Below, piece by piece: positions 12,125-29,152 of a stretch of 64,000 bases of DNA. A program made the position numbers and the translations under genes. The notes under the pieces were generated by a model. It was not told where the DNA came from and did not search any database. It saw only the letters and a list, made by a program, of their open reading frames with translations. The DNA lies in the NCBI GenBank assembly GCA_047601885.1, contig JASGIK010000003.1, forward strand, positions 1,326,062-1,390,061. The letters run 5' to 3'. Position 1 is the first letter of the stretch. Each line of letters begins with the position of its first letter. The stretch comes from Solirubrobacterales bacterium. Its GTDB lineage: Bacteria > Actinomycetota > Thermoleophilia > Solirubrobacterales > 70-9.

Positions 12125-12131
12125 CGAGTTA

Positions 12132-12160
12132 TTTCTATTAGATGATTGTAATGATGTCAA
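12132..12160 (-). promoter_or_regulatory. sigma-70-like promoter of the ACAD operon, probably leaderless
   Basis: Minus strand reads TTGACA (12160-12155), 17-nt spacer, TAGAAA (12137-12132), then 7 nt to the ATG at 12124. The spacer contains the TCATTACAATCA operator-like motif. Confidence 0.45.
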
Positions 12161-12178
12161 GAAGGAGCGGACGCCCGA

Positions 12179-12940
12179 TCAACGCGGCGGAAGGCGGATC
12201 GCGCCGTCGAGCCGGATCGTCTCGCCGTTCAGGAATGGGTTGGCGAAGACGTGGCTCGCGAGGGCGCCGAACTCCTCCGGTTGGCCGAGCCGGCCGGGGT
12301 GCGGAGCCTGGCGGCCGAGCTCGAGCTTCTGCTCCTCCGGCATCTGCGCCATCAGCGGCGTGTCGAAGAGGCCCGGGGCGATCGTGACGACGCGGATGCC
12401 GAGGCTCGCCAGGTCACGGGCGATCGGCAGCGTCATGCCGACGATGCCGCCCTTGCTCGCCGAGTAGGCGGCCTGGCCGACCTGGCCGTCGAAGGCGGCC
12501 GCCGAAGCGGTGTTGATGACGACGCCGCGCTCCTCGCCGAGCGGCTCCAGCTCGGCCATCCGCGCGGCGGCGAGGCGCAGCACGTTGAAGCTGCCGATCA
12601 GGTTGATCTCGACGATCATCGCGAAGCGGTCCAGCGGGAAGGGGCCTTTGCGGCCGACGGTGCGGATCGCGTTGCCGGTGCCGGCGCAGTTGACGAGGCC
12701 GCGCAGCTCGCCGAGCTCGGAGGCGGCGTCGACGGCGGCCTGGACGCCGGCCTCGTCGCGGACGTCGGCGTCGGCGAAGGCGACGCGCTCGCCGAGGCGG
12801 TCGGCGACCTCGTCGCCGAGAGACGAGGGCAGGTCGAGCATCAGGACCGTGGCGCCGTCTTCGAGCAGCTTTTCGGTCGTCGCCAGGCCGAGGCCCGAGG
12901 CTCCTCCCGTGACGATGACGACCTTTCCAGAGATATCCAT
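12179..12940 (-). CDS. 3-hydroxyacyl-CoA dehydrogenase type II-like SDR
   Basis: VTGGASGLG and [12 protein letters not shown]; overall resemblance to HSD17B10/FadB2-type SDRs. Confidence 0.8.
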
Positions 12941-13012
12941 GCCGCTTCCTTCCGATTGGCAGCGCGCCCTCCCGGTGGCGCTGTCGAACGAACGTAAAAG
13001 CGGTTTATATCA

Positions 13013-14323
13013 TTAATCGGATTCTTGGACAGGTACCTGGAGGTGCCTCGGCGTCCCTTCCACGAAGGTGGCTACGGGGCGCCAGCGAGCGCTCGCGGCG
13101 GCCGCGGCGAGGGCGGCCGCGAGCGGCCGGTCGAGCAGGCAGAGGTCGGCGGCCGCGCCGGGCTCGACCCGCCGCGGCGGTCCGGCGGGATCGAGCGGCT
13201 CGCTGAGCAGCGAGGCGAGGACGGTGGCGGGCGCGACGCTCTCGGCGGCGCGCCTGGCAGCCGCCCGGATCGTGGCGCCGGGCTCGACGTCGCCGTAGGG
13301 CGCGTCGCTGCTGGCCGCGACGGCGATGCCCGCCTCCAGCAGGCCCGCGTAGCGCCAGAGGTCGGGGCGGCGCTCGGGCGGCGTCTCGCGCAGGAAGGCC
13401 TCGCGGTGGCGGGAGAAGATCGTCGGCTGGGTGACGACGGTGAGGCCGAGCGCGGCGATCCGCGTGGCGGCCGCGTCGTCGCAGACGGCGGCGTGCTCGA
13501 GGCGGTCGCCGGGCAGCGCCCCGACCGCGTCGAAGGCGGCGAGGCAGAGGGCGAGAGTCAGGTCGGTGACCGTGTGGATCGCCACCGGGCGACCCTCGTC
13601 GTGGCAGCGCTCGATCCTCGCCGCGAGCTCGCCGAGGTCCTGCTCGACGTGGTCGGCGAGGACGATCTTGCGCGGGCCGGCCCCGCGGTCGGAGAGCGAG
13701 AGCAGATGCTGAGGAAGCGCTTCTCCAAGTCGGCCGAGGTCGTCCTCGGTGAGGTCCGGCGAGGCGTCGGTGACGTGGGTGATGCCAAGGCGGAGCAGCT
13801 CGTCGCCGAGCGCCTGGAGGTCGACCCCTCCCCGCGCCCCGGCCCGCTCGAGCAGCCGGCCGAGGCGCTCGTCGCCGCGCCAGATCTGGCCGCTCTCGGC
13901 CTCCTCGGCGCCGAGCCCTTCGGCAAGCAGATCGACGGCCGCCGAGTTCAGCGTCCAGAGGGCGCCGCTGCGGTGCTGGACGCGCGCCGGGGAGTCAGGC
14001 CAGCAGCGGTCGAGGTCGGCGCGGCGCAGCTCTCGGCCGGCGCCGACGATGCGCAGCCAGCCGCCGTCCCCTTCGGGGGCGAGGCCGAGGTCGGGGGAGC
14101 CGCCGAGGTCGAACGAGGCTCGCGCGGCGGCGAGGGCGAAGGCGTGCAGGTGGTGGTCGGCGAGCCCCGGAAGGAGCGCGCCGCCCTCGGCGTCGAGGAG
14201 TCGCTCGCCGCCGCCTGGGAGATCGCGCCCGACCTCGACGACGGTGCCGCCACGGATTCGGCAGTCGACCTCGCGTCCGTCGATCTCGACCCGGCGCAGC
14301 AGCCAGGCATCAGTCGAGCTCAT
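13013..14323 (-). CDS. amidohydrolase-family metal-dependent hydrolase
   Basis: N-terminal beta-sandwich followed by PGLADHHLH (HxH metal motif); about 436 aa. Confidence 0.7.
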   Translation of the reverse strand: MSSTDAWLLRRVEIDGREVDCRIRGGTVVEVGRDLPGGGERLLDAEGGALLPGLADHHLHAFALAAARASFDLGGSPDLGLAPEGDGGWLRIVGAGRELRRADLDRCWPDSPARVQHRSGALWTLNSAAVDLLAEGLGAEEAESGQIWRGDERLGRLLERAGARGGVDLQALGDELLRLGITHVTDASPDLTEDDLGRLGEALPQHLLSLSDRGAGPRKIVLADHVEQDLGELAARIERCHDEGRPVAIHTVTDLTLALCLAAFDAVGALPGDRLEHAAVCDDAAATRIAALGLTVVTQPTIFSRHREAFLRETPPERRPDLWRYAGLLEAGIAVAASSDAPYGDVEPGATIRAAARRAAESVAPATVLASLLSEPLDPAGPPRRVEPGAAADLCLLDRPLAAALAAAAASARWRPVATFVEGTPRHLQVPVQESD

Positions 14324-15330: not shown

Positions 15331-16617
15331 ATGAACGCCAAGCCACTGGCAGGACGGCGGGTCGCCGCGGGGGCCTGGCCGGCCGCCGAGACGGCCGCCG
15401 AGCTGCTGGCCGCGCTCGGCGCCGAGCCGACGGCGGCGGCGGCCGAAGCCCCGGTCGAACCTTCGTCCTCTGGTCACCCGCAGGGTGACCAAGGGCAGAG
15501 GGTCGGGCTGCGGCTGGGCGAGAAGGTCGTCGCGGCGGCGCCGAGCTTCGCCGCCGAGGACTGGTCGGCGAGCGGCGTCGACGAGCTGACCGGGCGGCCC
15601 GGGGGCCCGCCGCTGGCCCCGGTGGGAGCGCCCGCGACCCTGGCCCGCGGCCTCGGCCTGGCGATCGGGGCGCTCGGCGGGCCCGCGGTCGACGGCGCCG
15701 AGCTGCTCGGCATGCGCGTCGGCTCGATCCCGCTCGCTCGTGGCGGCGCGCGTTCGGCCGGCGGCGCGGCGCGCCTGCTCGCGACCGCCGACGGCTGGGT
15801 CGCCTTCAGCCTCCCTCGCGCGAGCGACGAGGAGCTCGTCCCGGCACTGATCGGCGCCGCGGTCGAGGGCGGCGACCCCTGGCCCGCCCTCGCCGCCTGG
15901 GCCGCCGGGCAGCGGGCCGCCGACCTGGTCGGGCGCGCCGCCCTCCTCGGCCTGGCCGTCGCCGCGCTCGGCGAGCGGGTCACGGCCGGCGCGTCCTGGG
16001 ACCTCCGCCCCGTCCCCGCCGATCCGCCCGCGCGGGAGGCTCGCGATCCGACCCGGACGACGGCCCCCCTCGTCGTCAACCTGGGGGCGCTGTGGGCGGC
16101 GCCGCTCTGCGCTCAACTGCTTCATCGGGCCGGTCGGCGCGTCGTCGACGTCGAGGCGACGAACCGACCCGACGCCACCCCGCCGGGCCTGCGGCGGCCG
16201 CTGCGGGAGGGCCACGCGACGATCCGGAGCGACCTCGCGACGGACGCGGGCCGCGACCGCCTGGCCGCCCTCCTGGCGGAAGCCGACGTCGTCATCGAGG
16301 CAAGCCGTCCCCGCGCCCTCCGCCAGCTCGGCCTCGACGCCGAACGGGTGATGGCCGACCGCAGGCCGCGGGTCTGGATCCGCATCACCGGCCACGGCCC
16401 GGGGTCCGAACGCATCGCCTTCGGCGACGACGCCGCGGTGGCCGGCGGCCTGGTCGCGCGCGACGAGAGCGGCCCGGTCTTCGCCGGCGATGCCCTCGCC
16501 GACCCGCTGAGCGGCATGACCGCGGCGATGCTGGCGCTTGCCTGCGGACGGGCCGGCGGTGCCTGGCTGGTCGACGTCCCGATGGCCGCGGTGGCGGCGA
16601 GAGGAGCAGCAGGATGA
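15331..16617 (+). CDS. family III CoA-transferase-like protein with non-canonical motif order
   Basis: VVNLGALWAAPLCAQLLHRAGRRVVDVE, ADVVIEASRPRALRQLGL and ITGHGPG motifs lie in the C-terminal half. A small-domain-like segment (ATADGWVAFSL...) lies before them. Confidence 0.6.
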   Translation: MNAKPLAGRRVAAGAWPAAETAAELLAALGAEPTAAAAEAPVEPSSSGHPQGDQGQRVGLRLGEKVVAAAPSFAAEDWSASGVDELTGRPGGPPLAPVGAPATLARGLGLAIGALGGPAVDGAELLGMRVGSIPLARGGARSAGGAARLLATADGWVAFSLPRASDEELVPALIGAAVEGGDPWPALAAWAAGQRAADLVGRAALLGLAVAALGERVTAGASWDLRPVPADPPAREARDPTRTTAPLVVNLGALWAAPLCAQLLHRAGRRVVDVEATNRPDATPPGLRRPLREGHATIRSDLATDAGRDRLAALLAEADVVIEASRPRALRQLGLDAERVMADRRPRVWIRITGHGPGSERIAFGDDAAVAGGLVARDESGPVFAGDALADPLSGMTAAMLALACGRAGGAWLVDVPMAAVAARGAAG

Positions 16618-17249
16618 GCGAGCGGCGCTGGCCGTTGGGAGTGTGCGAGCTGGCGTGGAAGGGGCTCTCGGTCGAGGGGTGCGCGGAGCGGGCCGCGGCG
16701 GCGGGCTTCGACCACATCGACGTGACGCGCGGCGGTTTCGACGAGGCCACGATGGCGCTCCCGATCGGCGCCGTCCTGACCCCGAAGCCGGGCAGCGGCT
16801 GGGCCTGGCCCGCGCCGCTCCCGACCGCCGACCCGGGCCGCGAGATCGACCGCCTCAAGGCCGTCGACGTTCCCCGGATCGAGCCCTGGGCAGGGTGCCT
16901 GTGGAGCAGCGACGAGGCGATCGAAGACCTCCGCGAGCAGGTCCCCGACCTCCGTCTGGTGGTCGACACCGGCCATGTCGCCCAGTGGGGCGGCGACCCC
17001 CTCCGCTTCCTCGACATCGCCGACAACGTCCAGCTCCGCCAGGCCCGGAAGGGCGTCGGCCAGCTCCCCCCGGAAGACGGCGAAGTCGACTTCGAAGCCC
17101 TCCTCGCCCGCCTCGACGAGCTCGACTACCAGGGCAACCTCACGATCGAGTACTTCGACCTCCCCCAGTTCGGCTGGCCCCATCCCGATCCGGTCGCCGC
17201 CTGCATCGACCTGGCTGCCTTCGTCGACCCACTCCTGACGCGCCGCTAA
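16614..17249 (+). CDS. sugar-phosphate isomerase/epimerase-like TIM-barrel protein
   Basis: ATG at 16614 overlaps the upstream stop (ATGA). GFDHIDV, VVDTGH and LTIEYF are typical of the xylose-isomerase-like TIM-barrel family. Confidence 0.65.
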   Translation: MSERRWPLGVCELAWKGLSVEGCAERAAAAGFDHIDVTRGGFDEATMALPIGAVLTPKPGSGWAWPAPLPTADPGREIDRLKAVDVPRIEPWAGCLWSSDEAIEDLREQVPDLRLVVDTGHVAQWGGDPLRFLDIADNVQLRQARKGVGQLPPEDGEVDFEALLARLDELDYQGNLTIEYFDLPQFGWPHPDPVAACIDLAAFVDPLLTRR

Positions 17250-17402
17250 AGGCACCTGCGACAGTGCGCTCAGCGGGCGTCGCACCGAAGAGCAGGCTCG
17301 TCGGGGCGACGGCCGAGAGGAAACCCTGCCCGAGCCAGCATCGCGCCGACCGCGGCGAAGTGCTGGTCGATCAGCCAGGCCCAGCCTGATAAGCCGCGTA
17401 GC

Positions 17403-17509
17403 GAGGAATGCGCCCGACCAGATTCGAACTGGCGACCTTCGGCTGAAAGAACGAAGGGCGTTGGCTTGGGAGGCCGAGATCCGGACGTGATGTGACCTAG
17501 ATGAGACAC
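17403..17509. repeat. att-like junction copy 1: displaced 3' half of the tRNA-like gene plus arm sequence
   Basis: Identical to the tRNA 3' half over 42 nt, then degenerate. The arm ...agggcgttggc...gatgtgac..gatgagacac recurs at 22070-22171. Confidence 0.75.
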
Positions 17510-17709
17510 AAGCTGATCATGCTCGGGGGCGACAGCACCCTCGGTCGCATCATCGACGCCCAAACTCGGAGCGACGGGTCGTCGCCCTCGATCAGTGGTT
17601 TCGGCGGAACCGACAGCTGAGCCCCGATCCCACTCAGCTTGACCTAACGACGCGACTCGGACAGCATGCCTGACCGGTTCATGCAATCGTGCCGTTTCAG
17701 GGGGAATTA

Positions 17710-20493
17710 GTGGCTCTACTTGACCTGAGTGATCGCAATGCAGTTCTGGAAGCGATCGCGGAGTACGACCAACTGGGTGCGGAAGTGTTCCTAGCCAAAT
17801 ACGGCTTCGGGTCTTCGCGGACCTACTTCCTGATCCACAACGGTCGCTCCTACGACATCAAGGGCCTGCTGGCCGCAGCCCACGGCTACCAGTTTCCCGA
17901 GCTAGGGCCGCTTGTCGCCGACAAGAATTTCACCAGTGGACTCGACACGACGGTCTCGAAGGCCAAGGAACTGGGTTTCGAAGTCGAGGGCGACCGATCC
18001 AAGGACGAAGGTCCCACGTGGCTCTTTCAAGCCAATCCCAGGTACTACGACATCACCGACGCGGTCCACTCCCTCCGCGAGATGAACTGGACCGTTGCCC
18101 AGGGAAAGAACCAGATCTCAGCCGGGAACCGGCTCTATATCTGGCGATCAGGCCCGGACGGCGGGGTGATCGCCGAGGGCCACATCCTCACCGACCCCGA
18201 AATGCTCCCCGACCAGGAGGGCGCCGAGTTCATTCGCGATACGACCAAGTTCGGTGGCGAGGCACTCCGGGTCCGGTTGAGCATCGACCACGTCCTCGAT
18301 CCGCCGATCCTCAGAACGGATCTTCTTGAGCACCCCCGGCTGAAAGATCTCGGCGTCATCCGATTTGCCAACGCCACGAATTACAAGTTGAAGCCAGACG
18401 AGGACGCGGCTCTACAGGAGCTGATCGAAGTCTCCGAGATGCCGCTCCTGCAACGAAGGGTCACGGAATGGCTGTCCGAGTCCGGATACCCGGACGAGCG
18501 AGACGAGGACTCCGAGAGCGCCGCTCGGCGGGAGTTCCTTGCCGCGGCGATGTCGCAGGAGAATCTCGATGCAGTAATCGAAGATCCCTCGGAGTTCGAG
18601 AAGATCGCGTTCTCCCAGTTTGCTCACAAGTTCTACGGTGACGCTGGCAATCAAAGCACGGTCAACGCCTACCTCAGGGATGGCGGATTGGAGGCGCGGG
18701 TACGCCTTGCCCGGGCCATGCGGCATCTCCTCTACGGGGAAGGAAGCGAGGTCGAACGTCTTAACGACGTCCTCGAGGATCCCGCCTGGAAGGTTCCTGG
18801 ATTCAGTGAGGTGCTCGCCACGAAAGCTCTGTCGGTGATGTCTCCCGAATTCTGGATCCCGATGTTCCGGATGGACGGCGAAATGGGAAAGCTCCGCGTC
18901 GCAGGTTCTCGCGAGCTCGACATCACCATCCCCCAAGATTTCATGCAGAAGTCCTATGGAGAGCGGATTCGATGGACCAACGATGTCCTCCGCGACAAGG
19001 TCGAGCCTCTGCTGCCGAACGACTCCTGGGGCCAGATGATCTTCCTGTACTGGCTGCGAGAACGGAATGATGTCCTGTCCACCCAGCGGACGGTCTGGTG
19101 GGTGAACCAGAGGGCCCACTACCGCGAGGAAAGAGACGGCGGTTATCTCTGGGCCCCACTTGCAGATCGGAACGGCCGACCGATGCGACATTGGGACAGT
19201 CTGCGACAGGCGAACCCGGGGGAGCTGGTGCTGAACTACGCCAACGGTCGGATCCGTGGCGTGGCAACGGTAGAAGAGACGGCAATCGAGGAGGGCCGCC
19301 CGAAAGAGCTCGCGGACGTATGGGAAGACGACGGCCTCATGGTCAGAGTCAGCTACACCGAGCTATCGGAGTCGATCTCGCTCGACGATATCCCGGTCGA
19401 CTGGCGGCTTGAGCAAGGGCCCCCTTTCGACCGCAAAGGTGCTGTGCAGCAAAAGGGATACTTCTTCGAGCTAACGCCGACTTTCGTCGACCGCCTAGCC
19501 GAACGATTCCCGCAGTTGGGACTTAAAGAAGTGCCTGAACCTTCCGCGAAAGGCGAAAGCTACATCGAGCCACCGCTCGACGAAATCGCGGCATCAGTCC
19601 GATCCGCCGGTATGGAGATCGCCGACGACACCGTCAGGCGTTACCACCTCGGGCTTAAGACGAGAGGCTTCGTGATCCTCTCAGGGGTCAGCGGCACCGG
19701 CAAGACCTGGCTTTCCCGCCTCTACGCCCAGGCCGTCAGGGCAACCGCCCTTGTGGTCCCCGTAGCCCCGAATTGGACGACGAACGAGGATCTGCTCGGC
19801 TTCCAGAACCCGCTCACCAACACCTTCCAGTCAACCGAGTTCACTCGCTTTTTGAAACGGGCCGCGGCGGAGTGGGAGGAATCGACCAAAGAGAAACGTC
19901 AAGCCCAGCCTTACCACCTCATCCTCGACGAGATGAACCTGGCTCACGTCGAGTACTACTTCGCCAAGTTTCTCTCAGCGATGGAGATTCGCGCGACTGA
20001 CGGAGTCGGTGAAATCGAGCTGGCCCCCGGCACCGAGGTGCTGCTGCCACCGAACCTCTCCTTCATCGGGACTGTCAATGTCGACGAGACGACGAGAGGC
20101 TTCGCGGACAAGGTCTACGATCGGGCACAGCTGCTCGAGCTCGAGGTTACCCGGGAGGCGCTGGAGGCACACCTTGGGAAGAAGGTCTTCGCCGAAGTCC
20201 TCCTGACCGTCTGGGAGGCGGTGCGCGAAGTCGCACCGTTCGCGTTCCGGGTCGCCGACGAGATCAGCGTTTACATTGATGAGGCGGCAAAACTCGAGGT
20301 GAGTTGGGAGACGGCCTTCGACGAGCAGCTGCTCCAGAAGGTCTTGCCAAAGGTCAAGGGCGCTGATATGCGAATCGGACCGGCACTCCAGCTATTACTG
20401 GAGATCGCCGACGACAGATTCCCGATGACGGCGCGCAAGGCTGGAGCGATGCGCGCTGACTTCATCCAGCATGGATTCACCTCCTATTTCTAG
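17710..20493 (+). CDS. McrB-like AAA+ GTPase with multiple N-terminal reader domains (ScoMcrA-head-like, EVE, second PUA-like barrel)
   Basis: Head-like segment: AIAEYDQLGAEVFLAKYGFGSSRTYFLIHNGRSYDIKG. EVE-like: WLFQANPRYYDI...NRLYIWRSGPDGGVIAEG. Second barrel: WWVNQRAHYREERDGGYLWAP. McrB motifs: GVSGTGKTW, LILDEMNLA, GTVNVDETT. GTG at 17710 follows GGGGA; an alternative GTG is at 17689. Confidence 0.8.
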   Translation: MALLDLSDRNAVLEAIAEYDQLGAEVFLAKYGFGSSRTYFLIHNGRSYDIKGLLAAAHGYQFPELGPLVADKNFTSGLDTTVSKAKELGFEVEGDRSKDEGPTWLFQANPRYYDITDAVHSLREMNWTVAQGKNQISAGNRLYIWRSGPDGGVIAEGHILTDPEMLPDQEGAEFIRDTTKFGGEALRVRLSIDHVLDPPILRTDLLEHPRLKDLGVIRFANATNYKLKPDEDAALQELIEVSEMPLLQRRVTEWLSESGYPDERDEDSESAARREFLAAAMSQENLDAVIEDPSEFEKIAFSQFAHKFYGDAGNQSTVNAYLRDGGLEARVRLARAMRHLLYGEGSEVERLNDVLEDPAWKVPGFSEVLATKALSVMSPEFWIPMFRMDGEMGKLRVAGSRELDITIPQDFMQKSYGERIRWTNDVLRDKVEPLLPNDSWGQMIFLYWLRERNDVLSTQRTVWWVNQRAHYREERDGGYLWAPLADRNGRPMRHWDSLRQANPGELVLNYANGRIRGVATVEETAIEEGRPKELADVWEDDGLMVRVSYTELSESISLDDIPVDWRLEQGPPFDRKGAVQQKGYFFELTPTFVDRLAERFPQLGLKEVPEPSAKGESYIEPPLDEIAASVRSAGMEIADDTVRRYHLGLKTRGFVILSGVSGTGKTWLSRLYAQAVRATALVVPVAPNWTTNEDLLGFQNPLTNTFQSTEFTRFLKRAAAEWEESTKEKRQAQPYHLILDEMNLAHVEYYFAKFLSAMEIRATDGVGEIELAPGTEVLLPPNLSFIGTVNVDETTRGFADKVYDRAQLLELEVTREALEAHLGKKVFAEVLLTVWEAVREVAPFAFRVADEISVYIDEAAKLEVSWETAFDEQLLQKVLPKVKGADMRIGPALQLLLEIADDRFPMTARKAGAMRADFIQHGFTSYF

Positions 20494-22057
20494 ACTCGGG
20501 TTCCGGTCCGAGTCGGGAGCCGCCGACCCTGGTCCGAGCGAGTGGCGCGGAGGTCGGATCGTCATCGACGCCGTCAACGGTTCGCTGCCTCGAGCCAGGC
20601 TGACGCGCAACGGTAACGACCTCGACCTCGCCGAGCGCGTCACCGACGGTTCGGTCCGGCTTGTCGCCGACTGGCCCCTCTCCGGACCAGGGCGGTATCA
20701 CCTTCGCTTCGAAGTCGACAATGTCCTGGTCGAGGAGACGACCTGGACGGTAAGCTCGGCGAAGCTTTCCCGGGACGCCTTCCGGCACCTGATGGACGAC
20801 CTGGAGAACCAGCTGCCGGTGACCATCGCCCTCGCGCTAAAGAAGCTTGGCGCTGCCGTGGGAATCGAGCTGACGCCACCAAGCGGAGTCAACTCAGTCG
20901 CCGAAGAGTTGGCCAGATTGCGTCGTACGATCGCGAAAACGGAGTATGGCCCAGGCTTGGCAGCCATCCTCAGGGAGATTGCCAATGACCCCCATGAAGT
21001 CTTGATGGACCGAGAGATGTGGGTCCCGGCGACTCAGGCCAGAAGGGTGACGCCGGCCGGTCTCGCCCGTGCGGCCCAGGACGAATCCAATCAGAGCGCA
21101 GACGGCATCCCGAAGCGGCTTCCCGATGCGCGCGTCCAAGCGTCGGTCGATGTCTACGAGAACCGTCTTCTGAAGTCCTTTGCCGACGAGGTCCATCAGC
21201 GCCTGCACCGTCTGAGGTCATTTCTGGAGACGCGCAACGAGCCCGAGCTCAAGTCCGAGGTGGAGCGACTCGGGAAAGACATTCGCTCGGCGCGCAGACA
21301 GGCCGCCTTCCTCGATTCGGTGGGAACCCTCGACCAGGTTCCCACCAGAGTGACGATGGTGTTGATAAAGAAACCTCCCTACCGCAATCTTCTCGAGTCG
21401 GTGCTCGAGTTTCGCCGTCGCAACACGGTCAGGCTGGACGATTCCGCCCTCGAGACGCCATTGGAGCAGCTGCCAGACCTCTACGAGAAGTGGGCCACGC
21501 TGGTTGCCATCAGCGCCGTCCTGGAGCTAAGCGAGGAGCTCGGCTATGAGGTCACTCGTCACCGGCTGTTCCGGCAACGCGCAATGGGTCCGTGGATCGA
21601 GGTCTTGCCGGATGGAGACACCGCTGTCGAGTTGCGCAACCTCGACCTCGACCGGACCGTATCGGTGATCCCTCAAAGGTCCTACTCGCGCGTGGGGTCT
21701 CCATTGCGCACCATCAGCTTCAGGCAGATCCCAGACCTGGCAATCGAGGTAAGGAAACCGAAAGGCAAGTGCGAGGTGTACCTGCTCGACGCAAAGTACA
21801 AGCTCGACGGCGAGGCGGCGGAGTCCGGCGTTCCGGACGGGAAACCGTTAAAGGCAGACATCGACAAGATGCACGCCTACCGAGACGCAATCCGCGACGT
21901 CGACGGCGAGAGAGTCGTCCACCTGGCAGCAATTCTCTATCCGGGTGAGTCGCGGTTCTTCGACAGCGGACTCGCCGCCCTTTCCGCCCTGCCCGGCGCC
22001 GACCAGATCTTGTGCACCCAGATCAAGGACCTACTAAGGCCCGCGCTTGCGGACTGA
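20471..22057 (+). CDS. McrC-like partner: DUF2357-type region + PD-(D/E)XK nuclease
   Basis: Overlaps the mcrB-like gene by 23 nt. SVDVYENRLLK; nuclease core IPDLAIEV...VYLLDAKYK...DIDKMHAYRDAI. Confidence 0.75.
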   Translation: MDSPPISRLGFRSESGAADPGPSEWRGGRIVIDAVNGSLPRARLTRNGNDLDLAERVTDGSVRLVADWPLSGPGRYHLRFEVDNVLVEETTWTVSSAKLSRDAFRHLMDDLENQLPVTIALALKKLGAAVGIELTPPSGVNSVAEELARLRRTIAKTEYGPGLAAILREIANDPHEVLMDREMWVPATQARRVTPAGLARAAQDESNQSADGIPKRLPDARVQASVDVYENRLLKSFADEVHQRLHRLRSFLETRNEPELKSEVERLGKDIRSARRQAAFLDSVGTLDQVPTRVTMVLIKKPPYRNLLESVLEFRRRNTVRLDDSALETPLEQLPDLYEKWATLVAISAVLELSEELGYEVTRHRLFRQRAMGPWIEVLPDGDTAVELRNLDLDRTVSVIPQRSYSRVGSPLRTISFRQIPDLAIEVRKPKGKCEVYLLDAKYKLDGEAAESGVPDGKPLKADIDKMHAYRDAIRDVDGERVVHLAAILYPGESRFFDSGLAALSALPGADQILCTQIKDLLRPALAD

Positions 22058-22069
22058 GCGGAGCTTGCA

Positions 22070-22171
22070 GGTGCACCGAGCCGGATTCGGGCGTCACCCG
22101 CGGCTTGAAAGGACGGAGGGCGTTGGCCCTGGAAGCGGATTTTCGGAGGAGATGTGACTGGGATGAGACAC
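22070..22171. repeat. att-like junction copy 2 (degenerate), separating island modules A and B
   Basis: ggcttgaaaggacggagggcgttggccctggaagcggattttcggaggagatgtgactgggatgagacac aligns with 17441-17509. The preceding 30 nt are a degenerate tRNA T-arm/acceptor copy. Confidence 0.55.
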
Positions 22172-22181
22172 GCAGTGCGCC

Positions 22182-22961
22182 TTAGGCGGCTGCGCTGGCG
22201 GTCGCGCCAGTGATTGCCCGAGCGTGGACCAACGCTTTTCGCAGATCATCGAGAGAGGGTCGCTCCCGAATCGAGCAGTGAAGGTCGGCTCCGAGCTGCA
22301 CCTTGCCCAACTGCTCCAGCTGTCCCGCCAACTCGTCGCGCGCCAGGGGGAAAACGTCGCTCGACAAGAGCACCCATCGGGCGACGAGAGAAAGTGCTCC
22401 CCTCGTCTGCTCGAGGGCCGCGCCGTAATCGCCGCTCGCGGCGATCTGCTCCGCGAAGCCCAATGCGTTACGGGCCTGCCGGAGCTTCCGGTCGGGATCG
22501 GGCCAAAGGTCCTGCTCGGCGATATACATCGCGGCCTCGCGGAGGACGCCGGAGTCGAACAGCACGCAGCCGTACCAGACCGACCAGTGGGCGAAGTCGT
22601 CCCCCTTCCGCAGCTTCGCCCAGAAACGATCGACGTCGTCGGCGTATAGGTCGATGTCCGCGGGCAGGTCCGTCACGCGCAACGAGGTCGCACCGATCAC
22701 GTGATAGTCGACATCGCTCACCCTGGTTCGCCGCCCACGCGCGGTCGAGCCGGAGAGGACCATGGCCGCGGCGCCAGCGTCCCGTGCTCGCACCATCGCC
22801 GCCTCGGTGATCGCCGCGAGTTCCGCCGACTGGTTGGAGGCGGCGCGCTGTCGGTCGAACCGCAGCCTCTCCGCCCAGGCGTCAGGGTCCGCGGGCGCAA
22901 GCCGCGCGAGCGCCCCTCTCTGGGGAGTCAGTTGCTGCCAGGTCCTCGTCATCGTCGTCAT
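22182..22961 (-). CDS. nucleotidyltransferase (MNT-type) with C-terminal helical HEPN-like region
   Basis: LSGSTARGRRTRVSDVDYHV matches the GSxxxG...DxD nucleotidyltransferase motif. ATGA overlap with the upstream HEPN-like gene. Confidence 0.7.
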   Translation of the reverse strand: MTTMTRTWQQLTPQRGALARLAPADPDAWAERLRFDRQRAASNQSAELAAITEAAMVRARDAGAAAMVLSGSTARGRRTRVSDVDYHVIGATSLRVTDLPADIDLYADDVDRFWAKLRKGDDFAHWSVWYGCVLFDSGVLREAAMYIAEQDLWPDPDRKLRQARNALGFAEQIAASGDYGAALEQTRGALSLVARWVLLSSDVFPLARDELAGQLEQLGKVQLGADLHCSIRERPSLDDLRKALVHARAITGATASAAA

Positions 22962-23329
22962 TCGGATTCAGCCTCGGCCATTCGGACCGCAGTTTCAACC
23001 TCTCTGATCACATCATCGATGGAGAGCTCGCCAAGGTCGGGATCCTCACCCTCGTAGAACATCGCCTTGCGCTCCTCATTGAGGAGCTGATGCAGCTCGG
23101 AGAGGTCTTTCGGCAGCACTCCCTTGCCGAGTAGCTCCGTCGCCGCATCCCGCCGCCGCCAATGCTTTTCGCCGATGGTGATCCCGTGCTTCTCCGCCAG
23201 CGCGTCGATCGCGGCCTCAAGACTCGCGAAACTCCACTGCACCGCGTCCCGCAAATCGCCTGCAGCGGCCTCTTCCTGAGCCTTGCTCAGATGCTCCCGC
23301 GCTACCTCCACCTTGGGTTTGGAGGTCAT
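22958..23329 (-). CDS. small HEPN-like four-helix protein
   Basis: 123 aa. Helical pattern AREHLSKAQEEAAAGDLRDAVQWSFASLEAAIDALAEKHG...LNEERKAMFYEG resembles the HEPN (kanamycin-nucleotidyltransferase C-terminal type) family. No clear Rx4-6H RNase motif. Confidence 0.5.
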   Translation of the reverse strand: MTSKPKVEVAREHLSKAQEEAAAGDLRDAVQWSFASLEAAIDALAEKHGITIGEKHWRRRDAATELLGKGVLPKDLSELHQLLNEERKAMFYEGEDPDLGELSIDDVIREVETAVRMAEAESE

Positions 23330-23492
23330 GCGGTCATGCTACGTCGCGCAGCGGATCCGCCTCCGAATCCAACGATGAAGCATGCCTGGGCCCTCATGTC
23401 GTGGTCCTCCGCGGGGAGCACGACTTCGAACTAACCCCGAGCGTCTTCAGAAGTTTTCCAACCGCCGGATTGGCTGCGATCCTGACGGGGAA

Positions 23493-24650
23493 ATGGTGAG
23501 CGGCGTGATCGAAAGCAGCGAGGGCCCCGCAGTCTTCGACCAAACGCGGGACCGGTTGGATGCCGACTTCTTACGCGCCACCGAAGCACCCACCCCAGCG
23601 GTCGGCGCCGACTTCGAGATCGTCGATCTCTTCTCCGGCTGCGGCGGGTTGACGATCGGCGCGATCGAGGGGGCTTCGCGAGCCGGGAGGAAGGCGGGCC
23701 TCGCCGTTGCGATCGACAGTGATGAGGTCCCGCTGTCCGTACTAAGGGCCTCTCTTGGGGTTCCCGAGCGCTCCGTAGTAGCCGCCGACCTCTCCGACGC
23801 ATTGGGGTCAGTAGGGGCGGCATCCACCTCCGGCGAGCAGGAGCTCTTCGCCGGGATCGCCTGCAACTCGCTGTTACTGGCCGGCCCGCCGTGCCAGGGT
23901 CACTCTGCGCTAAACAATCACACCCGCCACGACGATCCGCGAAACGATCTCTATCTCGCAGTCGGACGTGCGGCCCGGATCCTGAAGCCACGCGTCGCGA
24001 TCGTTGAGAACGTGCAGGGGGTCGGCGCCGACCGGCGCTCCTCGGTTGCCCGCTGCACCTCGGTGCTTGAGGAGCTCGGCTATAAGGTCACCCAACGGAA
24101 GATCGACCTCTCGACCATCGGCGTCCCGCAGCGACGGATCAGGCACGTGCTGGTCGCAACCCGCGAATCCGCCCTCCAGTGGGCCCTTCCCTCGACTGCG
24201 GTCCGCGATGTGCGCTGGGCGATCGAGGACCTGGCCGCGATCTCGGGCCAGTCATCGTTTGACACACCCTCCACTCCCTCGCCAGTCAATCGTGAACGAA
24301 TGAAATGGCTGCTCAAAAACGACGCCTACGACCTCCCTAATGAACGGCGACCCGTCTGCCACCGCTCTGACCACTCGTACCGCTCAATGTACGGGCGGCT
24401 GCGCTGGGATAGACCCGCGCAGACGATCACCAGCGGCTTCGGATCGATGGGCCAAGGTCGCTATGTTCATCCGTCGCGGGCCCGAACCCTAACCCCCCAT
24501 GAGGCCGCGAGACTCCAATTCCTCCCGGACTTCATGGACTTCTCCGGGGTCGAGCGACGCGGTGCGCTTGCCCAGATGATCGGCAATGCCGCGCCGCCGC
24601 TGCTAACGGCCGTGCTGGTTGAGATGCTGATCGACCAGCACCTTCTGTAA
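23493..24650 (+). CDS. DNA (cytosine-5)-methyltransferase
   Basis: Motif I DLFSGCGGLT, motif IV GPPCQGHS, motif VI ENVQG, motif VIII QRRIRHVLV, motif X IGNAAPPLL. ATG at 23493 follows GGGGAA. Confidence 0.9.
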   Translation: MVSGVIESSEGPAVFDQTRDRLDADFLRATEAPTPAVGADFEIVDLFSGCGGLTIGAIEGASRAGRKAGLAVAIDSDEVPLSVLRASLGVPERSVVAADLSDALGSVGAASTSGEQELFAGIACNSLLLAGPPCQGHSALNNHTRHDDPRNDLYLAVGRAARILKPRVAIVENVQGVGADRRSSVARCTSVLEELGYKVTQRKIDLSTIGVPQRRIRHVLVATRESALQWALPSTAVRDVRWAIEDLAAISGQSSFDTPSTPSPVNRERMKWLLKNDAYDLPNERRPVCHRSDHSYRSMYGRLRWDRPAQTITSGFGSMGQGRYVHPSRARTLTPHEAARLQFLPDFMDFSGVERRGALAQMIGNAAPPLLTAVLVEMLIDQHLL

Positions 24651-24697
24651 TCGGCGACCTGGCTGACGACGAAGTCCGCGTTCCCAGGCCAAAAAGC

Positions 24698-26620
24698 TCA
24701 AGCACCGACGGTCTGACGTAGCGGGCCCACCTGTCTTTTGACCTCTCGCAGCGTGTGATATCGGTCGGCCATGAAGGCTGCGGTGAGTGCAACCGGCGAG
24801 AGGGCATCGTCGAAGTTGGTCGCCGTCCAAGTCGACCCATTCTCTAGCTGACGCAACCCGTTGACCGCCTCTACCATCTTCTGCTCAACCCACTCCTGAG
24901 CGAAGGTCTCGATCTTCTTGGCGACGTCGTCGTCGCCGTCGGGATTCGCCCACTCGTTGATCGTCGCGAGGATCGCCTGATAGCCGCGGAAGTCGCGGTT
25001 CAGCAGGAGGATTCCGGCGGTGGCCCCGTCCTCGCCAGCGAGGGCAGCGGCGCGATCGTGGAGACCCTTTCCTTCTCCCTGGACGAGCGCGAAGGAGTCG
25101 GCCTCGGACTCACTCACCCATTGCGGTGAGATCTGGAGCAGAGAGAAGACCTCACTGGCCGCCTCGGCATCAGCGCCCTCGACCTGGGTGAGAACAGCTC
25201 CGATCCCACGCGTGGAACTGCTGTTGCGACGCCGGCCAGGACCGACACGCTTCTCGATCATCGATCCGTTGTTAGCCCCGGGACCAGCGACCGAAGGCCC
25301 GCTGGCGATGAGTTTCCCCTCACTGTCGCGTTTGAAGCGACGTGGTCGAAGGAGCTGCATCACGTCCTTCAGTCGGTCGCGGATGCGCCGCGCACGATCC
25401 GGATCCTCCACCTCGAGACGCGCCTGCTCCTCGGCCATCGTTTCCTTGATCTTCTCCGGCATAGCCTCGCGGAACTGCTCGGACCAAGTGAGCCACGCAT
25501 CCGACTCGAACACCGGGGTGCCACCGACCAGGACATGCGCACGAGCGAAGTCGGAGGCAATCGTCGTGCCAAGCGGCTCGACCACGAAGCCGATCCGGTT
25601 CTTGCCGAAGAGGACACCCATGCGGGCGAAGTAAGGGTTCGCCTGATTCGAAATTCGCCAATCGTGGAGCTCATTCTGGAAAAGAACGGCGACACTGCCG
25701 CCGCTCGCCGTCCGCGTTGACACATCGGTGCCAGGACCGCTCGGCAGAACCCACCAATGGATTCGCGCGGCCGGTATGTCCGCCGAGGGTTCGCCGGCTA
25801 CCTCAAGCGAGTCGTGGTAGTCCTCGCCTTGCCGGCTGGCGGCGTCGTCCCAGATCGCTGCAGTGCCACGGACCTTGGAGAGATTGAACGACTTGCCGCC
25901 TTCCTTGCGCTGGCGAGCGTCGGCCTCCTCCCGGCTTCGTGGCCAGTCGTCGGAGTCTCCGCTCGGCACCCGGACAAACGTCTCGACACCGTCCTCGGAG
26001 AGCCTGAAGAACCGCTGATGAAGGTACTTAAAGAGCCAGCCGCGCGCGCGGCCGCCGGGCAAGAAGGTGTCCTCCTCGTCATCGGTGCCGAGGAAGGTGA
26101 CCACCGTCCCAGAACCACGCTCGAGAATGAACTTCGGAAACAACTCCTCCTCGACGGGGACGACCTCCTCGCCGTTGGCTCCGAGCGGGATGAGGCCGTA
26201 CTCGTGACCGTTCCAGCCAACCTGGACCATGGTGCGCTCGCCGTTCTTGAGCGAGCGGATCAGAACCCCATTCTTGTGGCGGGTTGGACCCGCGATCTTC
26301 AGGCCCATCCCTTGGTTGCCGACGATCGACTGGTTCTGATTGGCGCCCTGCACTGCCAGGGTGGTCATGTAGCGGGTCAGCTCCGAGCGCGACATCCCGT
26401 CCCCGTCATCGGCGCAGGAGATGAACCACTTCCCCGTGCGCTCATGCATTGGCCAGTCGACGTCGAACTCGATCCTGCCGGTCGAACCCAAATCTTCTGC
26501 CGTTATTCGACGGCCAACAGCCTCTTCGGCGTTCTTATAAACCTCGCGCTGCTCCTGGTCGGGCAAGAGCTCCGAAGCGAGCTTGTCCGCGATGAAATCC
26601 GCGTTCTCGACGCGAAACAT
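24698..26620 (-). CDS. MORC-like GHKL (Bergerat-fold) ATPase with about 400-aa uncharacterised C-terminal region
   Basis: N-box YKNAEEAV, G1 box CADDGDGMS, G2 box GNQGMGLKIAG, then GSGTVVTF. AAGGAG lies 8 nt upstream of the ATG at 26620. Confidence 0.75.
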   Translation of the reverse strand: MFRVENADFIADKLASELLPDQEQREVYKNAEEAVGRRITAEDLGSTGRIEFDVDWPMHERTGKWFISCADDGDGMSRSELTRYMTTLAVQGANQNQSIVGNQGMGLKIAGPTRHKNGVLIRSLKNGERTMVQVGWNGHEYGLIPLGANGEEVVPVEEELFPKFILERGSGTVVTFLGTDDEEDTFLPGGRARGWLFKYLHQRFFRLSEDGVETFVRVPSGDSDDWPRSREEADARQRKEGGKSFNLSKVRGTAAIWDDAASRQGEDYHDSLEVAGEPSADIPAARIHWWVLPSGPGTDVSTRTASGGSVAVLFQNELHDWRISNQANPYFARMGVLFGKNRIGFVVEPLGTTIASDFARAHVLVGGTPVFESDAWLTWSEQFREAMPEKIKETMAEEQARLEVEDPDRARRIRDRLKDVMQLLRPRRFKRDSEGKLIASGPSVAGPGANNGSMIEKRVGPGRRRNSSSTRGIGAVLTQVEGADAEAASEVFSLLQISPQWVSESEADSFALVQGEGKGLHDRAAALAGEDGATAGILLLNRDFRGYQAILATINEWANPDGDDDVAKKIETFAQEWVEQKMVEAVNGLRQLENGSTWTATNFDDALSPVALTAAFMADRYHTLREVKRQVGPLRQTVGA

Positions 26621-26864: not shown

Positions 26865-27958
26865 TTAGCCAATGGAGGCTCGAATTTGCTCGGCTCCGAC
26901 GTCAAGTGCGTGCACATATCGTGCCAACATCGTCTCGACTCTGTGACCGGCAATCTTGGCCAGATCGGCGTCATTGACGCCGGCGGCGCGAAGGTTGCTC
27001 ACGTAGGAGTGGCGGCACTCGTGTGGGGGCGGATGTCCAGGCCGGAGGCCTCCTGGGTCGGCTTCCAGACGTCGCGGTAGAAGGTCCGCTCCCGCCACAT
27101 GCGGCCGCGCGGCGTCGTGAAGATCAGCTCGCTGTCGGGGCCGTTGAGGTTGATCTGCGCTTCGAGCATCCAGGCGAGCGTGGCGGGAACAGGGACGACG
27201 CGGCCGGTATCCTCCTCGCCATGGTCGGTCTTGGTGCCCTCGAGGATCTGGCCCTCGTGCGCAGTGCGGCGGACCTGGAGGGTCTGGCCGTCGAAGTCCT
27301 CCAGTCGTAGAGGCAGCACCTCGCCCAATCTCAAACCGGTGTCGGTGAAGGTCCGCACCAGCGCCTCGTAGCGACCTGCCGCCTTCGCGAAGCGGTGCAT
27401 CTCCTCGAAGCTGAAGACGCGGATCGGGCGGCGCCGCTTCTGCGCCCTTGGATCGTTGGCGCGGATGCGGACGCCCTTGAACGGGTTGAGGTCGCAGACT
27501 TCGTCGGTGATCGCGTCCTCGGCCATCGCCGAGAGCGAGCGGAGGATGCCGACGGCGCCGGTGGTTGCCCGACCTTCGGTCCTCAGCATGTGGTCGACGA
27601 GCACCAGGGCGTGGCACCGGCGCAACTCGCGCATCGGCCAGTCCTTCAGCGGGATGCCCTCGACCTCTACGTCGGTCAGACGACTGATCCGATGCTCGTT
27701 AGTTGCGTTGGTCCGTTCCGATCGTGGGTGGCGCTCGGTCCAGGTGTTGAAATAGTCGCCGACGGTGTCCGGCCGATCGGAGAGTCCGCAGGCCTCGTCG
27801 ATGGCACGCTGAGCGTCTGCCTTACGGAGAAAGGTCCCTTTGCCGCGGTTCCAGGTCGGCTTGGCGACATGGCGCTTCCCGTCCCGGCCCGCGTGGCGCG
27901 CGATCCAGACGGTCTGGCCCGATGGATTGCGGCGTTTGGTCGGCGACTCGCGCCTCAT
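26865..27958 (-). pseudogene. tyrosine recombinase/integrase, frameshifted just before the catalytic RH...Y box
   Basis: Frame A ends ...SGLDIRPHTSAATPT*. Frame B continues PHECRHSYVSNLRAAGVNDADLAKIAGHRVETMLARYVH. The shift is at cacac (27018-27029). The first catalytic Arg context, TGLRLGEV, is present. Confidence 0.8.
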
Positions 27959-28149
27959 ACCGTCTCGTCCCGGTGCCTCGCGAGGAAGTCCTCGACGTCG
28001 GCGGGGTCGATGCGACGGGCAGCGCCTAGCTTGTAGCTGGGAAGCTCGCCGCGGCGGATCCAGTTGCGGATCGTCCGATCCGAAACGGCGAGGTAGGTGG
28101 CGAGGCTGCGCTCGGTGAAGAAAGCGAGCAGGGTGAATTTCCGTTCCAT
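27955..28149 (-). CDS. excisionase/MerR-like helix-turn-helix DNA-binding protein
   Basis: 64 aa. LAVSDRTIRNWIRRGELPSYKLGAARRIDPADVEDFL. ATGA overlap with the integrase start. Confidence 0.7.
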   Translation of the reverse strand: MERKFTLLAFFTERSLATYLAVSDRTIRNWIRRGELPSYKLGAARRIDPADVEDFLARHRDETV

Positions 28150-29056
28150 GCCCCTGTTGTCAATCGAGAGGGCGAAATGGCTCGGATTGATTTCAGATCG
28201 GCCGAAACTAGCGGTAACGAGACCGAAGGTCAGACCTCTCCCGGCCCCTCCTAACGGCGGCCTGCACACGGCGAAGCCGTGCCAGAATCGGCCGCCCGGA
28301 GGGGCGGTCGGAGCGGTGCAGATGGCCCTTCGTACCTTGACAACCTTCCCAACCGACAAGGGGCGGCCCAGGCACGGAACCGGAGGGTTCGTAGTTTGTC
28401 GGGTGTCGAGGTCAGTGGTGAGGAGAGGCCGGTGGTGGGGCGCCTGCGGCTGTCTCGTGAGTGGGGTCTCCGGTGAAGGGATGGTGCTGGCGAGGAGTGC
28501 CCATCGGTGATGACGGGTCGGGTGACGAGTCCGTCGGGAGAGTGGGCGAGGTGGTCGGGCAGGATGTCGACGGCGGGAGGTGATCGCGATTCGTTCCAGC
28601 CCGCATCGGTCGCCTCCGACGTCTGCGCCGTCGTCGGACTGCAAGCTAAGGGCCGCGAGAGCAAATGGCTTCCCGCAGACCTCCTCGGTCTCCGGCCTCA
28701 CATGAGGCTTGGGGGCGGTCGTGGCGCCCTTGGCTGTGGCGGCGACGTGCGGTTCCCCGCCGCCGGTCCCGAGCCAGCGGATCACAGAGGGAGCCGCCGG
28801 CCTGCCAAAGCCGACCTCGTCGCCGATTCTCGGGTCCGTCGGCGTTCCCGACTCGCGATGAGATACCCAATTCATTTCCTCCGAAGAGCGTCCGCGCACA
28901 CCATCGAGACCCGGCCCGATGAGACCAAGATGTGGCCACCATCTCCCGGAACGCCCCGGAACCGGCCGGAAACCGACGGAACGCTCCTCCCGGTCGACTA
29001 CCGAAGGTTTGGCTCTGCAATGGGCCATCCCCGGCACCGCCCGGAACTACGAGGAA

Positions 29057-29152
29057 TGCGCCCGACCAGATTCGAACTGGCGACCTTCGGCTTGAAAGAC
29101 CGACGCTCTTTGGGCCCCCGGAGGGACCCGTTGACCACTGAGCTACGGGCGC
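29057..29152 (-). tRNA. tRNA-like gene, anticodon loop CTTTCAA (UUC, Glu by anticodon), with about 20-nt hairpin insertion in the D-loop
   Basis: Hand fold: acceptor GCGCCCG/CGGGCGC, D-stem GCTC/GAGC, anticodon stem TCGGT/GCCGA, T-arm GCCAG-TTCGAAT-CTGGT, discriminator A. The D-loop holds an extra GGGTCCC-TCCG-GGGGCCC hairpin, giving 96 nt total. Confidence 0.55.

Follow-up and report, generated by a model that had tools for sequence, protein, structure and literature searches.

The 64,000-nucleotide window analysed here (positions 1,326,062–1,390,061 of the forward strand of contig JASGIK010000003.1, GenBank assembly GCA_047601885.1) comes from a Solirubrobacterales bacterium of the Actinomycetota and contains two intact genes that meet tail to tail: a C5 cytosine methyltransferase on the forward strand (23493–24650) and, on the reverse strand (24698–26620), a 640-residue GHKL-superfamily ATPase that we call GHKL-640. 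The two stop codons are 47 nucleotides apart (24651–24697), as the original prediction of a convergent pair had described, and a terminator scan detected no terminator-like hairpin, and so no bidirectional terminator, in this gap. Related loci show a similar gap, or the 3′ ends of the two genes overlap. Comparison with these loci identifies the pair as the Vsr-less copy of a three-gene cassette of methyltransferase, Vsr and ATPase, an exception that lost its Vsr gene, and we propose tentatively that GHKL-640 is a MutL-like clamp serving the methyltransferase–Vsr unit.

The methyltransferase is read as a 385-residue protein from the ATG at 23493; the longest open reading frame (ORF) opens at 23382, and homologues align from about residue 18–23 of the 23493 form. 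The Pfam family PF00145 (DNA_methylase) covers profile positions 1–320 of 324 (E = 6.5e-33), and the translation displays FSGCGG, GPPCQ, ENV, QRRIR and GNAAPP, as expected of a Dcm-type enzyme. The protein is thus the complete Dcm-type methyltransferase that had been claimed, with motifs I, IV, VI, VIII and X all visible. Orthologues beside the ATPase in related loci are 44–73% identical. The best PADLOC model is DruM2 (DruM, PDLC00033; 318 bits), and Druantia type II was considered and rejected: the DruM2 model alone matches, with no DruE, DruF or DruG among the island proteins or the conserved neighbours.

GHKL-640 is conserved over its full length. It has more than 375 full-length homologues of about 640 residues, so neither ORF is a chance product; the 120 listed are 66–100% identical to it, and nearly all measure 633–659 residues. 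The homologues all begin with MFRVENADF, which places the start codon at 26620 and not at the ATG at 26662. One homologue, an annotated protein of a Solirubrobacterales metagenome-assembled genome, is 100% identical, and a more distant clade is ~42% identical. The sole Pfam match is PF13589 (HATPase_c_3, E = 7e-8), and neither NCBIfam nor PADLOC returned a match. The four Bergerat boxes reported earlier (KNAEEA, DDGDGM, GNQGMGLK and GSGT) are borne out by the translation and by PF13589; the length given with them, 641 residues, is corrected to 640.

We modelled the full-length protein with AlphaFold2 on a 60-sequence alignment, obtaining a mean predicted local distance difference test score (pLDDT) of 77, with values of 85–95 in the well-ordered parts. 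The N-terminal Bergerat ATP-binding domain (res. 1–200; 26021–26620, reverse strand, as for all domains below) is supported by PF13589, Foldseek and sequence motifs. Specifically, motif I provides E26/N30, motif II D71-x-G73-x-G75, motif III G104-x-G106 and K108, and motif IV G171-T172. These residues are conserved in 52–60 of 60 homologues, as is characteristic of the GHKL superfamily. Members of the 42%-identity clade (P0121–P0131; loci L033–L035) have GNGDGM in place of DNGDGM, losing the canonical adenine-binding aspartate with the remainder conserved. In a PDB sequence profile search, the N-terminal profile aligns weakly to GRP94/TRAP1 (Hsp90 N-terminal domain, E ~0.1).

A second α/β domain follows (res. 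~205–370; 25511–26008; pLDDT 85–95). Foldseek searches against the PDB align 420–490 columns of the model to the two-domain modules of TRAP1/Hsp90, the ParE/GyrB 43 kDa fragment, SMCHD1, MORC2/3 and Topo VI-B, with E-values of 7.5e-10 to 1e-6 and TM scores of up to 0.54 when normalised to the target. On the strength of these two-domain alignments, residues 205–370 are assigned as an S5-fold transducer, which gives GHKL-640 the architecture of the GHKL plus S5 class. An invariant G339-K340-x-R342 in the transducer may contribute the phosphate-sensing lysine. The transducer leads into an arm of three long helices (res. 374–424; 25349–25501; DSSP on the model) and then into an Arg/Gly/Pro-rich linker predicted to be disordered (res. 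425–495; 25136–25348), with pLDDT below 50 over residues 424–432 and 435–494. This otherwise variable linker carries a short conserved motif, RGIGAVL(T/S)Q (res. ~471–479; 25184–25210), in which G472, G474 and L477 are invariant in a first alignment (A1) and G472 and L477 still are in a second one of 60 sequences (A2). The motif may be a docking peptide for a partner.

The C-terminal domain (res. 498–640; 24701–25129) is specific to the family and consists of three strands and a five-helix bundle. Modelled alone, it reaches a pLDDT of 90 and a predicted TM score (pTM) of 0.85, and Foldseek found no fold match for it in the PDB (best E = 0.95, nothing at or below 0.001). Used as a profile against 1.84 billion proteins, the domain gave 346 clusters at E ≤ 1e-3; it ends every near-full-length match (~530–700 residues) among the 150 listed, and the shorter matches were taken as fragments. 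It is presumed to be a dimerisation or partner-binding domain.

The original prediction assigned neither a fold nor a nuclease motif beyond the first ~200 residues and proposed a structure prediction of residues 200–641 to look for hidden folds, a nuclease and an S5 transducer among them. That region resolves into the transducer, the arm, the linker and the novel C-terminal domain: an S5 transducer is there, and a nuclease is not. A nuclease hidden in residues 200–640 was rejected, since the full-length model matches GHKL plus transducer modules alone and the C-terminal domain has no PDB match; no nuclease fold was found by Foldseek with either the full-length or the C-terminal model, and no metal-binding motif of the MutL-type endonuclease is visible in GHKL-640. 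Nor does the C-terminal region match a housekeeping family such as MutL or HtpG, an outcome that had been named as counting against a dedicated system.

A scan of one genome per species gave 40 genomic loci carrying the ATPase (numbered with L below), 36 of them with sufficient flank for linkage counts. Their hosts are mostly Actinomycetota, with Chloroflexota, Acidobacteriota, Planctomycetota and a deltaproteobacterium also represented. In 32 of the 36 assessable loci, across at least five phyla, a C5 methyltransferase gene is found no more than 5 kb from the ATPase gene and usually converges on it, with a few tens of bases between the two. PF00145 was also found beside the ATPase at all six further places examined in metagenome assemblies, so that the suggested survey of homologues for co-occurrence with a methyltransferase reveals a conserved pair. 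All-against-all clustering of the neighbouring ORFs yielded no conserved partner other than the methyltransferase and Vsr, and none of the McrB-like, McrC-like, HEPN, nucleotidyltransferase and integrase genes of the window recurs in the related genomic loci.

Most of the 114 nearest flanking genes, drawn from 35 of the 40 genomic loci, have metabolic or housekeeping functions; three encode integrases and two are Fic/DOC genes. The ATPase homologues show no general enrichment in defence islands, against what had been expected of a defence gene. The cassette is usually a small insertion and is not regularly embedded in such islands. Viral contigs yielded three weak N-terminal matches (23–24% identity); the ATPase family is essentially missing from them and is not phage-borne. 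A plasmid collection contained a single distant match, from Caballeronia (28% identity), with no methyltransferase nearby.

The second conserved partner is Vsr. Of the 30 loci with both a methyltransferase and enough flanking sequence, about 27 encode one (PF03852, E = 1e-15 to 6e-18). At L011, L018, L020, L021 and L027, the Vsr gene follows that of the methyltransferase in an operon of the dcm-vsr type; at L001–L006, L014, L016, L022, L024, L025, L029 and L040, the two run divergently; and at L008 and L033 Vsr stands between methyltransferase and ATPase, in that order, on a single strand. Since the ATPase is linked to both methyltransferase and Vsr in related loci, the ancestral unit had three genes, and the minimal two-gene module of the original prediction gives way to a three-gene cassette. 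Intact ATPase and methyltransferase genes are retained with no Vsr at L012, L034 and L035 and in the window, which thus falls outside a Dcm–Vsr unit defined by a linked Vsr gene. The earlier statement that the island has no Vsr extends to the whole 64-kb window (tblastn, E ≤ 0.01), and a HEPN gene there occupies the position taken by Vsr in the closest relatives.

Some loci deviate from this plan. At L043 (7892–9421, reverse strand) and L044 (3069–4850, reverse strand), one product matches both DNA_methylase and Vsr, an apparent fusion whose 3′ end overlaps that of the convergent ATPase gene by ~70 nucleotides. L034 and L035 have an operon of a 42%-clade ATPase, a methyltransferase and a 315-residue protein, without Vsr. 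At L010, ATPase and methyltransferase are separated by the insertion of a ThsB-type TIR gene and a HIT-family gene (12015–13366). Four loci (L026, L028, L030 and L039) have no methyltransferase within 10 kb. One of them, L026, carries an intact solitary ATPase gene (10001–11929) between efp and a prolidase/aroQ/aroB/aroC cluster, with neither methyltransferase nor Vsr within 10 kb, and L028 likewise holds a solitary copy (10001–11925) with neither partner within that distance. Intact solitary copies (L026, and probably L028) suggest that the ATPase is not toxic by itself. The ATPase reading frames are split in L028, L030 and L039; the apparent frameshifts in L028–L031 may be assembly errors, and the N. 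ungokensis protein P0136 (651 residues) is intact, so the link between a broken ATPase frame and a missing methyltransferase is weak.

A minority of cassettes carry extra components, none of which occurs in the window. A second, different HATPase_c_3 protein of 556–813 residues is found at L007 (11955–14396, reverse strand), L021 (11977–13947, reverse), L024 (7169–9013, reverse), L031 and L043/L044 (L043 10056–11726, forward). PADLOC REase_II models recognise it at 1e-92 to 1e-98, and towards its C-terminus it bears a D...ELK motif. The L007 protein is fused to a Vsr/MTES_1575-like domain, a direct tie between GHKL ATPases and Vsr-fold nucleases within the same kind of cassette. Two further families recur: c5 (~280–315 residues) at L009, L033–L035 and, ~9 kb from the ATPase, L030; and c12 (up to 362 residues) at L013, L015 and L032. 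Neither has a Pfam or PADLOC match, and c5 also has no PDB sequence match. Four kilobases from the cassette at L014, an 824-residue protein (15773–18247, reverse strand) combines an N-terminal HATPase_c_3 with a C-terminal HATPase_c domain, the architecture of the HEF_HK 'two-component-like' family linked to C5 methylases (PMC8011034).

ATPases sharing 65–72% identity with the window copy are found with methyltransferases of two subfamilies, between which identity is only ~23%: the window type (best PADLOC model DruM2) and the L034/L013 type (best model PDLC03324). In pairwise comparisons over 28 complete cassettes, not corrected for phylogeny, identity of the methyltransferase correlates with that of Vsr (r = 0.61), whereas the ATPase follows the methyltransferase (r = 0.30) and Vsr (r = 0.23) less closely; mean pairwise identity is 63% for the ATPase, 55% for Vsr and 45% for the methyltransferase. 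Because it pairs with two such divergent methyltransferase subfamilies, the ATPase is not sequence-specific. As judged from these sequences, it acts as a generic module exchanged between cognate methyltransferase–Vsr units, which a sequence-specific restriction endonuclease could not do. A classical type II restriction–modification (R-M) system is rejected on the same grounds: the partner has no nuclease fold and no PADLOC match to a restriction endonuclease, and is common to divergent methyltransferase subfamilies.

The cassette has a precedent in comparative genomics. In 2008, Iyer, Abhiman and Aravind described prokaryotic MORC and paraMORC1–5 ATPases linked to cytosine methylases and to Vsr-superfamily and other nucleases, in purely computational work that predicted a role in restriction (PMC2292703). 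In their paraMORC1 family, the motifs are intact, an S5 domain is present and the C-terminus bears a distinct extension; the family occurs with methylases and a second GHKL family but without helicases (PMC2292703). GHKL-640 fits all of these features in a comparison made by description; like paraMORC1 as described, it is linked to a cytosine methylase and the Vsr superfamily, has no helicase nearby, is sometimes joined by a second GHKL protein, and shows a patchy, laterally transferred distribution. By this description, we place the GHKL-640 cassette in the known paraMORC–Dcm–Vsr kind, predicted computationally in 2008. The original prediction had called the system not recognisable as characterised, which does not hold for comparative genomics, where the kind was described (PMC2292703), and does hold for experiment: our literature search found no experimental study of such a cassette, nor any of prokaryotic MORC- or paraMORC-type ATPases, Shedu-type GHKL–nuclease fusions apart.

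The label 'MORC-like' is not sustained. The MORC signature motif GhXhhpXXRhl is missing, even in relaxed form, from the window protein and its L034 homologue (regular-expression scan), no MORC-specific Pfam domain is present, and the layout is nearer to that of MutL. The families paraMORC2, 3 and 5 are set aside, as GHKL-640 has no ExxxH, no HxH and no C-terminal domain of the restriction-endonuclease fold (E-D-ExK). Hsp90, HtpG and TRAP1 head the fold search over the N-terminal and middle domains (E = 7.5e-10) and also the weak matches by sequence; orthology to Hsp90/HtpG is rejected, as identity is 13–15%, TM scores are 0.33–0.37 on the query length and up to 0.54 on the target length, and PF00183 does not match. 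GHKL-640 further differs from Hsp90 in its C-terminal domain and in being encoded by a mobile, methyltransferase-linked gene.

Type II m5C R-M systems with a Vsr share the three-slot layout, the small self-contained mobile unit and, often, convergent genes; here, the restriction ('R') slot is filled by a conserved nuclease-free ATPase that is common to different methyltransferase subfamilies. A GHKL ATPase takes part in experimentally validated anti-phage defence in VcSduA, a Shedu type I-D or paraMORC3 protein (PMC12137116). Like GHKL-640, VcSduA couples its GHKL ATPase to a clamp-like middle domain; it differs in working alone and in having a C-terminal PD-(D/E)xK (DUF4263) nuclease, whereas GHKL-640 is nuclease-free and tied to a methyltransferase. 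The Mza system is another GHKL–nuclease defence system.

The closest architectural parallel is MutL. The Escherichia coli protein likewise consists of a GHKL domain and transducer, a long flexible linker and a separate C-terminal domain. Both proteins are without nuclease activity of their own (predicted in the case of GHKL-640), and the Vsr with which MutL works is cognate to a Dcm-type methyltransferase, as is predicted for the Vsr of the cassette. The N-terminal domain of E. coli MutL binds Vsr in a nucleotide-dependent manner, and MutS, MutL and ATP hydrolysis stimulate Vsr (PMC2715241). GHKL-640 differs from MutL in being carried by a mobile cassette and not being a housekeeping protein, in having no MutS-like partner and, for the window copy, in standing without Vsr.

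GHKL plus transducer modules dimerise on ATP and serve as gates or clamps. We propose, with a probability of about 0.4, that GHKL-640 serves the methyltransferase–Vsr unit as a MutL-like ATP-gated clamp with no nuclease and no sequence dependence, most probably by activating or coordinating nicking by Vsr. The window genes would then represent a reduced copy of a horizontally mobile three-gene cassette of methyltransferase, cognate Vsr and GHKL-640. The methyltransferase would mark its own sites; the ATPase and transducer domains would dimerise on ATP, closing a clamp as in their relatives; and the C-terminal domain, beyond the arm and the ~70-residue disordered basic linker, probably holds the ATPase dimer together. 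Loaded on DNA as an ATP-gated clamp, the ATPase would act as a matchmaker or activator of the small nuclease of the cassette, and the main output would be efficient nicking at T:G mismatches that arise from deamination of 5-methylcytosine. Clamp behaviour, interaction with Vsr and repair output are what we infer here. With methyltransferase and clamp only, the window copy would need a Vsr encoded elsewhere or would be functionally incomplete. Most Actinomycetota have no MutS or MutL. Vsr-like nucleases can damage DNA once their cognate methyltransferase is removed (PMC12907096).

Several observations weigh against such a clamp. In the window and at L012 and L034/L035, ATPase and methyltransferase have stayed intact in the absence of a nearby Vsr, and the ATPase therefore cannot strictly depend on a linked Vsr. 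Dcm–Vsr pairs of the E. coli type need no dedicated ATPase. Acidobacteriota, Chloroflexota and Planctomycetota, phyla that normally encode MutL, harbour the cassette too, and a repair helper alone does not explain the horizontal spread of the cassette. A mirror-tree test for a specific ATPase–Vsr interaction gave no signal (partial r = 0.06, uncorrected for phylogeny). Membership of the MutL family itself is rejected: no Pfam, NCBIfam or PDB-profile match supports it, the C-terminal domain is unlike the MutL fold, and the likeness is one of architecture only.

A restriction-like defence role, as foreseen by the original prediction, is a possible though doubtful explanation. The ATPase would fill the 'R' slot of a methyltransferase–R–Vsr set and act on unmethylated incoming DNA, either by enlisting a nuclease, be it Vsr, the second GHKL nuclease of some loci or an enzyme of the host, or by blocking the DNA uncut. 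Its near-obligate linkage to the methyltransferase, stricter than the linkage to Vsr, agrees with this, as do the persistence of the pair in the Vsr-less loci, the tail-to-tail layout typical of R-M pairs and the transfer of the cassette across phyla. Three of the four loci without a methyltransferase have a disrupted ATPase frame, some of them possibly through assembly errors. The company kept by some copies points the same way: integrase-bearing elements in the window and L048/L049 combine a HEPN/nucleotidyltransferase pair or a ParE-toxin gene with a type IV restriction gene, a GmrSD_N gene lies near the cassette in L051, and the additional GHKL protein of some loci matches REase_II. The Shedu-type VcSduA shows a GHKL ATPase at work in defence (PMC12137116). 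A methyltransferase with Vsr would also need a third gene that gives methylation a purpose, which could explain the spread of the cassette. Against defence, however, the ATPase has no nuclease fold and the window segment no nuclease partner; an ATPase that pairs with different methyltransferase subfamilies cannot be the source of a matching sequence specificity; the ATPase is unusually well conserved for part of a restriction system; and the intact solitary copy at L026, the mostly housekeeping flanks, the missing PADLOC match and the near absence from viral contigs fit poorly. Of the 'candidate methylation-linked defence system', the methyltransferase link is firm, and the defence role is not better supported than one coupled to Vsr and repair.

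Two other possibilities would reassign the partner or the output of the ATPase. GHKL-640 might be a subunit, perhaps in a heterodimer, that partners a second GHKL protein with a PD-(D/E)xK-like or Vsr-like nuclease, the window being a remnant. Neighbourhoods uniting two different GHKL families with methylases have been reported (Iyer et al., PMC2292703), and the second GHKL protein described above, with its REase_II match and D...ELK motif, would suit such a role; yet its gene is present in just ~6 of some 45 loci, the majority of complete cassettes consist of three genes and do without it, and the window ATPase is intact with all motifs conserved, which makes an orphaned subunit quite improbable. 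A slim prospect as well is a MORC-like, nuclease-free reader or silencer, a clamp that would sense methylation state and compact or silence DNA, or regulate the methyltransferase, with no cleavage. The fold-level likeness to the MORC2/3 and SMCHD1 ATPase modules, the missing nuclease, the basic disordered linker and the persistence with a methyltransferase alone in the window speak for it, but the MORC signature is absent, Pfam detects no methyl-DNA reader domain, the strong Vsr linkage is left unexplained and there is no bacterial precedent. Rather unlikely, too, is that methyltransferase and nuclease-free clamp alone form a methylation-gated barrier that would block or silence unmarked DNA uncut, with Vsr as an optional add-on for mutation control. 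The survival of the pair without Vsr, seen in at least four lineages, and the missing nuclease fold are compatible with it, and, if true, it would be a bacterial functional counterpart of the eukaryotic MORC ATPases.

Relative to the 2008 description, our analysis adds that the three-gene form predominates, that the domain plan is MutL-like and ends in a novel C-terminal domain, that the ATPase pairs non-specifically with different methyltransferase subfamilies, and that the window copy is devoid of Vsr. With three genes in ~3.5 kb and hundreds of near-full-length homologues, the family is a small and highly conserved test case. It makes it testable whether a bacterial GHKL clamp reads or exploits DNA methylation, and whether MutL-less bacteria such as Actinomycetota acquire a MutL-like helper along with a mutagenic methyltransferase. 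As a natural variant without Vsr, the window copy is useful, but it is not the best representative of the family.

In the window, the pair resides on an integrated element at a tRNA gene. The GC content, 0.70–0.78 across the window, dips to 0.60–0.65 over ~17.3–28 kb. One boundary is the tRNA gene itself (29057–29152, reverse strand; ARAGORN, and Rfam tRNA at 64.5 bits), which is 96 nucleotides long and whose anticodon ARAGORN left unassigned ('tRNA-???'). A perfect 43-nucleotide direct repeat duplicates the 3′ part of this tRNA: the proximal attachment (att) copy is at the 3′ end of the gene (29050–29092), and the distal copy (17402–17444) marks the other boundary, where GC falls from ~0.78 to ~0.62. 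A degenerate third att/tRNA-like copy (22096–22171) shares 77% identity with 17444–17509 (repeat family D1) and belongs to a second repeat family (D2) with identities of 68% and 71% for the 17434–17467 and 29083–29116 copies. It splits the island into segment A (17.4–22.1 kb), with McrB-like and McrC-like genes, and segment B (22.1–29.1 kb), with the nucleotidyltransferase-like, HEPN, methyltransferase, ATPase, integrase and excisionase genes. This arrangement suggests the tandem accretion of two elements at a single tRNA gene, one McrBC-like and the other with the methyltransferase, ATPase, integrase and excisionase.

Directly upstream of the ATPase lies a tyrosine recombinase (integrase) gene (26865–27958, reverse strand) with an apparent frameshift near 27020–27040: Pfam places positions 19–131 of the Phage_integrase profile in ORF 26999–27958 and positions 125–169 in ORF 26865–27617. 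The split recombinase is either a decayed integrase, in which case the island is immobile, or an assembly error. Next to it is an excisionase-type HTH_17 gene (27955–28149, reverse strand; PF12728, E = 3.7e-12); the match falls on the C-terminal end of ORF 27955–29037, and the probable excisionase product has 64 residues and starts with MERKF. The proposed module on a mobile island is thereby upheld, as a horizontally mobile pair in a tRNA-integrated, att-bounded element with integrase and excisionase. Divergent from the methyltransferase is a HEPN-domain gene (22958–23329, reverse strand; weak Pfam HEPN/PaREP1 matches), paired with a nucleotidyltransferase-like gene (22182–22961, reverse strand) that has a GS...DVD motif in its translation and no significant Pfam match. 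This HEPN/nucleotidyltransferase pair was rejected as a system component, being absent from all 40 related loci.

Segment A encodes a McrB-like protein with EVE and AAA_5 domains (17689–20493, forward strand; Pfam, and the PADLOC models mREase_IV and PDC-M26A) and a McrC-like nuclease with DUF2357 and PDDEXK_7 (20471–22057, forward strand; Pfam and PADLOC). As an AAA+ NTPase with an N-terminal reader domain and a DUF2357/PD-(D/E)xK partner, the 17689–22057 pair has the make-up of a McrBC-type IV system. It lies within the att-bounded island, and the earlier assertion that the island holds no restriction endonuclease is wrong; the companion statement that it encodes no helicase, Z1 or AIPR protein agrees with Pfam, which finds no such domain among the island proteins. 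The McrBC-like pair was considered as a LlaJI-style restriction arm of the methyltransferase and rejected: it never co-occurs with the ATPase or the methyltransferase in the 40 related loci, it sits beyond the degenerate att copy, and its EVE domain points to modification-dependent restriction.

The integrase-then-ATPase order of the window recurs in L048/L049. Type IV restriction genes also lie near the cassette more than once, as the EVE-McrBC-like pair in the window and as GmrSD_N genes in L048/L049 (9844–11619) and L051 (9273–10337). A reader of modified bases adjoining a cytosine methylase raises the question of their compatibility.

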